This document shows positions 10,938-11,393 of a stretch of 64,000 nucleotides of DNA, piece after piece (the stretch's first letter is position 1; every line of letters begins with the position of its first letter). Source of the DNA: Escherichia phage vB_EcoM_G2285; sequence record MK327933.1, one strand, 5' to 3'. The position numbers were made by a program, and so were the translations under genes. The notes under the pieces are model-generated. The model had not been told where the DNA came from. It searched no databases and saw nothing but the letters and a program-made list of their open reading frames with translations.

Positions 10938-11393
10938 TTATTTTAGATCTTCGGCCCAATCTAGTTTTAAGGGTTCTTTGTATTCACGGTCGAGAATAAC
11001 CGGAATAGCTACATCACCACTGAATGATAGTTGGCCAACGTTATATGATAACGTTATATGTGGAGTGTAGTCGTCGAAATCATGAGTAGCACCTAAAGCT
11101 CGTGCATACTGATGACGACATCTAAGATATTCGGAATCAAGAACTAAAACCAGTACAGCGCCGTCGTCAGTTTTCCATACCTCAAAGTGTCCTGATTCGG
11201 CAACAGAATAACTACCACTAGATGTAGTATATGGTATGTTTACACGTGAATAACAAATTGTTGAATGAAGCTTTTCGCGTGGTACCGGATTAGGAATTCT
11301 TAATTTGCGCTGGAGGTCTTCCAGCGCGTCAAGTGTTAATTCCGAAAATTTAGCTGCGACGTAGAGGCCTTGTGAAAAGTCCTCAAATTTCAT
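10938..11393 (-). CDS. 57B: gp57B, Acb1-like 2H phosphoesterase (anti-CBASS cyclic-nucleotide nuclease family)
   Basis: Position upstream of 57A and gene 1 as in T4; two H-x-T/S motifs (HSTI, HITL) typical of 2H phosphoesterases. Confidence 0.75.

Follow-up and report, generated by a model that had tools for sequence, protein, structure and literature searches.

Among the closest described counterparts of the locus analysed here are the anti-CBASS nuclease gene of phage T4 and the internal-protein genes that lie beside it. Gene 57B of T4 encodes the founding Acb1 enzyme, to which accession NP_049750.1 was assigned (Hobbs et al. 2022, PMC9117128). Activity-guided fractionation of infected cells traced the degradation of 3'3'-cGAMP to this protein, and cleavage of 3'3'-cGAMP and cAAA, together with CBASS rescue, was reported for T4 Acb1 and nine other homologues (PMC9117128). 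In T4 infection the activity is present from about 15 min onward and blocks activation of the effectors Cap5, Cap4 and CapV; a T4 delta-acb1 mutant has a more than 300-fold defect on CBASS hosts, while the gene is dispensable otherwise (PMC9117128). The enzyme uses the tetrad H44/T46/H113/T115, stacks the bases on Y12, W74, F107 and W147 and owes its adenine specificity to E141 (Hobbs et al. 2022, PMC9117128). Residues 145-152 form a lid that is needed for catalysis (PMC9117128; bioRxiv 10.1101/2025.08.21.671373). T4 Acb1 ranks with the most promiscuous of the viral 2H phosphodiesterases, and because it also degrades 2'3'-c-di-AMP it triggers the Panoptes decoy system (bioRxiv 10.1101/2025.08.21.671373).

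The internal proteins of T-even phages have been presented as diverse anti-defence proteins (Rao and Black 2010, PMC3012670). T4 IPI is the only one for which an anti-restriction role is proven. That acb1 lies beside ipI in an anti-defence island was already pointed out by Hobbs et al. 2022 (PMC9117128). The shuffling of such cassettes in T4-like phages is proposed to be mediated by PeSL (promoter-early stem-loop) motifs, which flank variable ORFs and combine a stem-loop with an early, sigma-70-like promoter; the published T-even consensus of the latter is TTTACW-N17-TAYWAT.

The DNA examined, hereafter the window, is a stretch of 64,000 nucleotides from Escherichia phage vB_EcoM_G2285 (MK327933.1). 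The features around its 57B gene are the following, the two ORFs with a capsid-targeting (CTS) leader being referred to as cassettes 1 and 2.

11628 to 12362, minus strand: gene 1, dNMP kinase (Pfam PF21448 DNMK, E 6e-97), the synteny anchor
11393 to 11623, minus strand: gene 57A, tail-fibre assembly helper (Pfam PF17594 GP57, E 5.9e-23)
10938 to 11393, minus strand: acb1 (gene 57B) coding sequence, an ORF of 151 aa with an ATG start, stop codon included
10549 to 10857, minus strand: CTS cassette 1, 102 aa, beginning MKTFKEFINE (PHROG 2667 'internal head protein', E 3e-39)
10224 to 10487, minus strand: CTS cassette 2, 87 aa, beginning MKTFNEFISE (PHROG 7673, likewise an 'internal head protein' family, E 2e-48)
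9969 to 10175: small ORF of 68 aa
9053 to 9124 and 9131 to 9205, minus strand: two tRNA genes, Asn-GTT and Met-CAT

The TAA stop of 57A and the ATG of acb1 have one base in common (TAATG). The order gene 1 - 57A - 57B - internal-protein locus is that of T4 (NC_000866), and E. coli O157 typing phage 6 (O157tp6) and phage Mizar have the same layout. A preliminary description of this DNA had placed the gene at the T4 57B position, and this is confirmed by gene 1 and gp57A upstream and by internal-head-protein ORFs downstream. In T4 the order continues from 57B through ipI and trna.4/.3/.2 to the tRNAs (NC_000866). In the window the internal-protein ORFs are followed by members of PHROG families 1692, 1411 and 2023 and then by the two tRNAs. 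The T4 cluster comprises eight tRNAs plus segB, against only two tRNAs here, and the Asn and Met pair is present in Mizar as well. The phage is a Mosigvirus. Its structural genes at 15000-39000 share 98.6% identity with the Mosigvirus phages MM02, JK45 and APCEc01, and the closest acb1 matches are also Mosigvirus.

Regarding transcription, the window has 18 copies of the T4 late-promoter core TATAAATA as compared to about 8 expected ones; most of them are on the plus strand and precede structural genes. Gene 1 contains a minus-strand copy at 11978-11985, which lies upstream of 57A by about 355 nt and of acb1 by about 585 nt, and 57A and acb1 could be transcribed late from it.

Compared with Pfam, the 151-aa protein has a single family match at E <= 0.01, PF23474 'Anti-CBASS protein Acb1', and this match (E 1.3e-58) spans the whole profile, positions 1-144 of 144, scoring 197.3 bits where the cut-off is 27. 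No model of NCBIfam release 20 matches the protein. Its top sequence match in the PDB is the Acb1 of Erwinia phage FBB1 (7T26/7T27; E 1.1e-58), over query residues 9-148 with one 1-residue indel; entry 9Q2G is matched weakly (E 0.007). Amino-acid identity amounts to 85% with T4 NP_049750.1 and to 63% with FBB1 Acb1. Given 63% identity over 140 residues to a solved structure, it is near-certain that the 2H fold is the same as in FBB1 Acb1. A single-sequence AlphaFold2 model of the window protein was too poor for use (pLDDT 44.8, pTM 0.35).

On this basis we consider the window gene to be, with a probability of about 0.93, the Mosigvirus orthologue of T4 57B/acb1, encoding a 2H phosphodiesterase that would act as its orthologues do. 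An Acb1-type gene at 10938-11393, with T4 57B as the founding member of the family, was what the preliminary description had proposed; the second point is in accordance with PMC9117128, and for the first the family profile, the similarity to a crystallised enzyme, the functional residues, the lid, synteny and purifying selection all agree.

The annotation in circulation suggests another function, that of a generic 2H RNA enzyme: a LigT-like 2'-5' RNA ligase or cyclic phosphodiesterase engaged in RNA or tRNA repair. PHROG 755, the family to which the protein belongs, is named 'RNA ligase', and RefSeq gives the same label to T4 57B, in the T4 reference record itself, and to many of its orthologues; most GenBank records have 'hypothetical protein', with a few using 'anti-CBASS Acb1-like' or, in one record, 'cyclic phosphodiesterase'. 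LigT does belong to the 2H superfamily. However, no LigT or 2',5'-RNA-ligase family was matched in Pfam at E <= 0.01, where Acb1 stands by itself, the T4 protein that was fractionated as a 3'3'-cGAMP degrader is 85% identical (PMC9117128), and the residues that hold both nucleobases of a cyclic dinucleotide are all kept. An RNA enzyme is therefore very improbable. Since no LigT-type Pfam family was matched, the 'RNA ligase' label appears to be a legacy of remote 2H similarity, older than the characterisation of 2022. Both this label and 'hypothetical protein' are out of date for acb1.

The catalytic motifs and the lid of the window protein are located as follows.

11256 to 11267, minus strand: catalytic motif 1, HSTI, aa 43-46, with H43 and T45 as the counterparts of T4 H44 and T46
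11049 to 11060, minus strand: catalytic motif 2, HITL, aa 112-115, with H112 and T114 as the counterparts of T4 H113 and T115
10941 to 10964, minus strand: C-terminal lid, aa 144-151 (145-152 in T4 and FBB1), including W146 (T4 W147), aligned with T4 without gaps

These are the only two H-x-[TS] motifs in the translation, and H43 and H112 are 69 residues apart, exactly as H44 and H113 in T4 Acb1, so that the two motifs with 2H-like spacing that had been singled out beforehand are indeed present. When the residues of the protein are shuffled 20,000 times, 14% of the results also have two or more H-x-[TS] motifs, and the pair is thus not significant alone. As it is weak evidence, the case has to rest on the whole sequence. 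The alignment with T4 Acb1 that had been suggested as a check retains both catalytic histidines, at 85% overall identity. Each of the nine residues that Hobbs et al. name is kept: the tetrad H43, T45, H112 and T114, the stacking residues Y11, W73, F106 and W146, and E140. The window protein and T4 Acb1 differ by 22 substitutions, all of them outside the residues with a named function, and the lid differs from that of T4 only by the conservative change E148D. The tetrad positions are invariant among all intact homologues in an alignment that comprises 36 sequences, namely the window, T4, FBB1 and the 33 IMG/VR loci L004-L036. Locus L019 has an acb1 that is intact on direct translation; its start codon is probably not ATG.

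The same observations bear on the idea of an inactive relic in which the motifs are kept by descent. The ORF is intact and of full length, every functional residue is retained, and the ratio dN/dS is about 0.05-0.09 over four orthologues, being 0.055 with respect to T4, where dS exceeds 2 and synonymous sites are near saturation, and 0.08-0.09 with respect to two others. The gene is under strong purifying selection. Furthermore, 137 phage records encode a protein that is at least 99% identical. Taken together, this leaves the relic hardly any credibility.

The orthology to T4 Acb1 also suggests how the enzyme would work. We infer activity and phenotype of the window allele from orthologues that have been studied experimentally. 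On the model of the T4 and FBB1 enzymes, the product would be a small, metal-independent 2H phosphodiesterase with a U-shaped pocket that accepts host cyclic di- or trinucleotides containing at least one AMP, such as 3'3'-cGAMP, cUA, cAAA and cAAG. The aromatic residues Y11, W73, F106 and W146 would stack on the bases, E140 would read the N6 of adenine, and the C-terminal lid would close over the ligand. Subsequently, H43, T45, H112 and T114 would catalyse the attack by the 2'-OH of adenosine on the 3'-5' phosphodiester, linearising the ring by way of a 2',3'-cyclic phosphate intermediate. In this manner, the second messenger would disappear before CBASS effectors are activated, and abortive infection would therefore be prevented. 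By extension from the T4 orthologue, the phage is predicted to resist CBASS signalling that makes use of AMP-containing 3'-5' cyclic di- or trinucleotides, and to be vulnerable to decoy-signal systems, for example Panoptes.

An active Acb1 might still benefit the phage mainly outside CBASS, by acting on the cA3 of type III CRISPR or on other cyclic-nucleotide signals, with its breadth as a liability, since decoy-signal systems such as Panoptes would be triggered. The promiscuity of T4 Acb1, which degrades 2'3'-c-di-AMP and activates Panoptes, is in line with this (bioRxiv 10.1101/2025.08.21.671373), but CBASS is the only in vivo phenotype shown for an orthologue (PMC9117128), and the content of the window is silent on which host system matters most. 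A main benefit outside CBASS is accordingly regarded as unlikely, although less so than an RNA enzyme or a relic, and counteracting CBASS is the preferred role. The liability with respect to Panoptes is probably common to the window allele and T4 Acb1. A lesser possibility is a shift of the substrate range through the 22 substitutions, for instance such that 2'3'-c-di-AMP is spared and Panoptes escaped.

As a sequence, the window acb1 is an ordinary, already known gene. A homologue is encoded by 1,469 phage records (these include the 137 mentioned above), the proteins of O157tp6 (AKE45893.1) and of phage ATK48 are 100% identical at the amino-acid level, and the copy of Mizar is already labelled 'anti-CBASS Acb1-like protein'. 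Its significance thus extends little beyond correct annotation, which would describe a Mosigvirus with a standard broad-spectrum anti-CBASS nuclease.

The genes that follow acb1 are more variable. The preliminary description had CTS-protein cassettes adjoining 57B, and the ORFs beginning MKTFKEFINE and MKTFNEFISE bear this out: both fit the capsid-targeting pattern MKT[F/Y]xEF..E, about 10 aa ending in Glu. The mechanical ORF of cassette 2 has 91 aa and begins four codons upstream, at 10499, but the PHROG 7673 match starts from its residue 5. The two cassettes are alike in their CTS leader only. With T4 IPI, the common ground found by BLASTP is limited to residues 1-7 of cassette 1 and residues 1-14 of cassette 2, and a tblastn search of the whole window with T4 IPI gave CTS fragments only and no IPI homologue. 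Neither cassette has a match in Pfam or NCBIfam (NCBIfam matches none of the three downstream neighbours of acb1), and their sequence searches against the PDB gave chance-level matches only (E >= 0.02).

The cassette 1 protein is 93% identical to an 'internal head protein' of phage T2, and the cassette as such has its nearest counterparts in copies of the Tequatrovirus/T2 type. Its DNA is closest to the copy in locus L032 (94.5%), the acb1 of which is only 75.7% identical. Cassette 2 is 98% identical in phage phiE142, in which a 103-aa ORF is followed by an 87-aa ORF, and absent from O157tp6 and Mizar, in which an IPI homologue comes directly after acb1. At the DNA level acb1 shares 97-99% identity with other Mosigvirus loci, while the cassettes differ (as compared with L001, L002, L006 and L032). 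The arrangement of cassettes is mosaic. In all but four of the 33 loci L004-L036 a CTS ORF starts within about 800 nt downstream of acb1; some of these loci have two or three such ORFs in succession, and the mature parts belong to many unrelated families. T-even phages are known for a polymorphic internal-protein locus, and the cassette region is this locus. It was reportedly first described by Repoila et al. in 1994 (cited through Rao and Black 2010 and through Comeau et al. 2014).

Two further ORFs with a CTS occur elsewhere in the window, one of 192 aa at 410-988 on the minus strand, which starts MKTYKEFIAE, and one of 93 aa at 1794-2075 on the minus strand; they are perhaps the counterpart of the IPIII/IPII locus of T4.

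Without its CTS, the mature part of cassette 2 (residues ~14-87) has homologues at 30-57% identity in Escherichia and Klebsiella phage records of 43-45 kb and in Salmonella and Shigella phages of about 156-163 kb, sizes that do not fit T4-like phages. As these phages are not of T4 size, the cargo domain may exist independently of capsid targeting. Residues 34-42 of cassette 2, DLTPHITLG, resemble DYTPHITLS of Acb1, and a 'half 2H' enzyme was considered and rejected, the similarity being confined to this 9-residue patch. In the homologue of locus L023, which is otherwise conserved, the His of HITL is replaced by Tyr and the Leu by Val, and with Tyr in the place of the His, the likeness is probably a coincidence.

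A repeat of about 65 nt stands ahead of each of the three small genes that follow acb1.

10878 to 10942, minus strand: PeSL-like repeat copy 1, between acb1 and cassette 1
10503 to 10567, minus strand: PeSL-like repeat copy 2, between cassettes 1 and 2
10175 to 10239, minus strand: PeSL-like repeat copy 3, between cassette 2 and the 68-aa ORF

The repeat holds a promoter-like TTTACA-N17-(TG)TATAGT and, inside this site, a palindrome of 26 nt with a 9-bp stem, ATAGG(A/G)CTA-TGTTATAG-TAGTCCTAT, which in copy 1 reads ATAGGGCTA-N8-TAGTCCTAT. On the minus strand of the window the palindrome occurs five times (4072-4097, 5367-5392, 10184-10209, 10512-10537 and 10887-10912), where 0 copies are expected by chance, and about 10-35 nt downstream of every copy a small ORF starts on the minus strand. 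Of the loci compared, only the Mosigvirus ones contain it. The five copies, all inside TTTACA-N17-TATAGT, resemble the PeSL shuffling motifs of T4-like phages in their sequence features. With respect to the published PeSL, the -10 hexamer TATAGT agrees at 5 of 6 positions; the palindrome of the window overlaps the promoter, whereas the published stem-loop precedes it.

The preliminary description had furthermore taken 10.2-11.4 kb to be a compact counter-defence neighbourhood. The CTS signatures on which this was founded are real; the likeness of the cassettes to IPI ends with the CTS. The idea is plausible and is not new, having already been published. For the cassettes themselves an anti-defence role can only be inferred, because the CTS is all that they have in common with IPI and they have no relative in Pfam, NCBIfam or the PDB. 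It could be imagined that acb1 and the cassettes constitute a swappable island in which the PeSL-flanked CTS cassettes each supply an injected inhibitor directed at a different host defence, a speculative reading that we hold to be rather doubtful, though less so than any of the alternatives weighed above for the 57B protein. If it were true, both cassettes, being unlike IPI or any solved structure, would neutralise systems that are not yet identified. The CTS cassettes are in any case a more promising place than acb1 to seek new injected anti-defence proteins.

As regards known systems, a distant one is 2H PDE-9 (9Q2G, deposited as 'Anti-CBASS protein Acb1'), which belongs to the same structural group of viral 2H phosphodiesterases. 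It has an N-terminal lid and avoids 2'3'-c-di-AMP (bioRxiv 10.1101/2025.08.21.671373), whereas the lid of the window protein is C-terminal, of the T4 type. The crystallised FBB1 Acb1 (7T26 apo, 7T27 with 3'3'-cGAMP) is similar across essentially its whole chain, but has Phe at the position of the window and T4 Trp (W73) and Tyr at that of F106. In O157tp6, ATK48 and Mizar the Acb1 protein is identical or near-identical; in O157tp6 and Mizar the IPI homologue is the first gene to follow it, while the window has the T2-like 102-aa cassette and then the 87-aa cassette of the phiE142 type.

T4 IPI/IPI*, the GmrS/GmrD inhibitor, has no similarity to the window cassettes past the first 7-14 residues, but these cassettes stand where ipI stands in T4 and have an N-terminal CTS of the same kind. 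The last system is that of T4 Acb1. The window protein is one residue shorter at the N-terminus, and the downstream neighbour of its gene is not ipI. The two proteins are alike over their full length and have the tetrad, the stacking residues, the adenine-reading Glu and the lid in common, and in both phages the gene is located after 57A and before the internal-protein locus.
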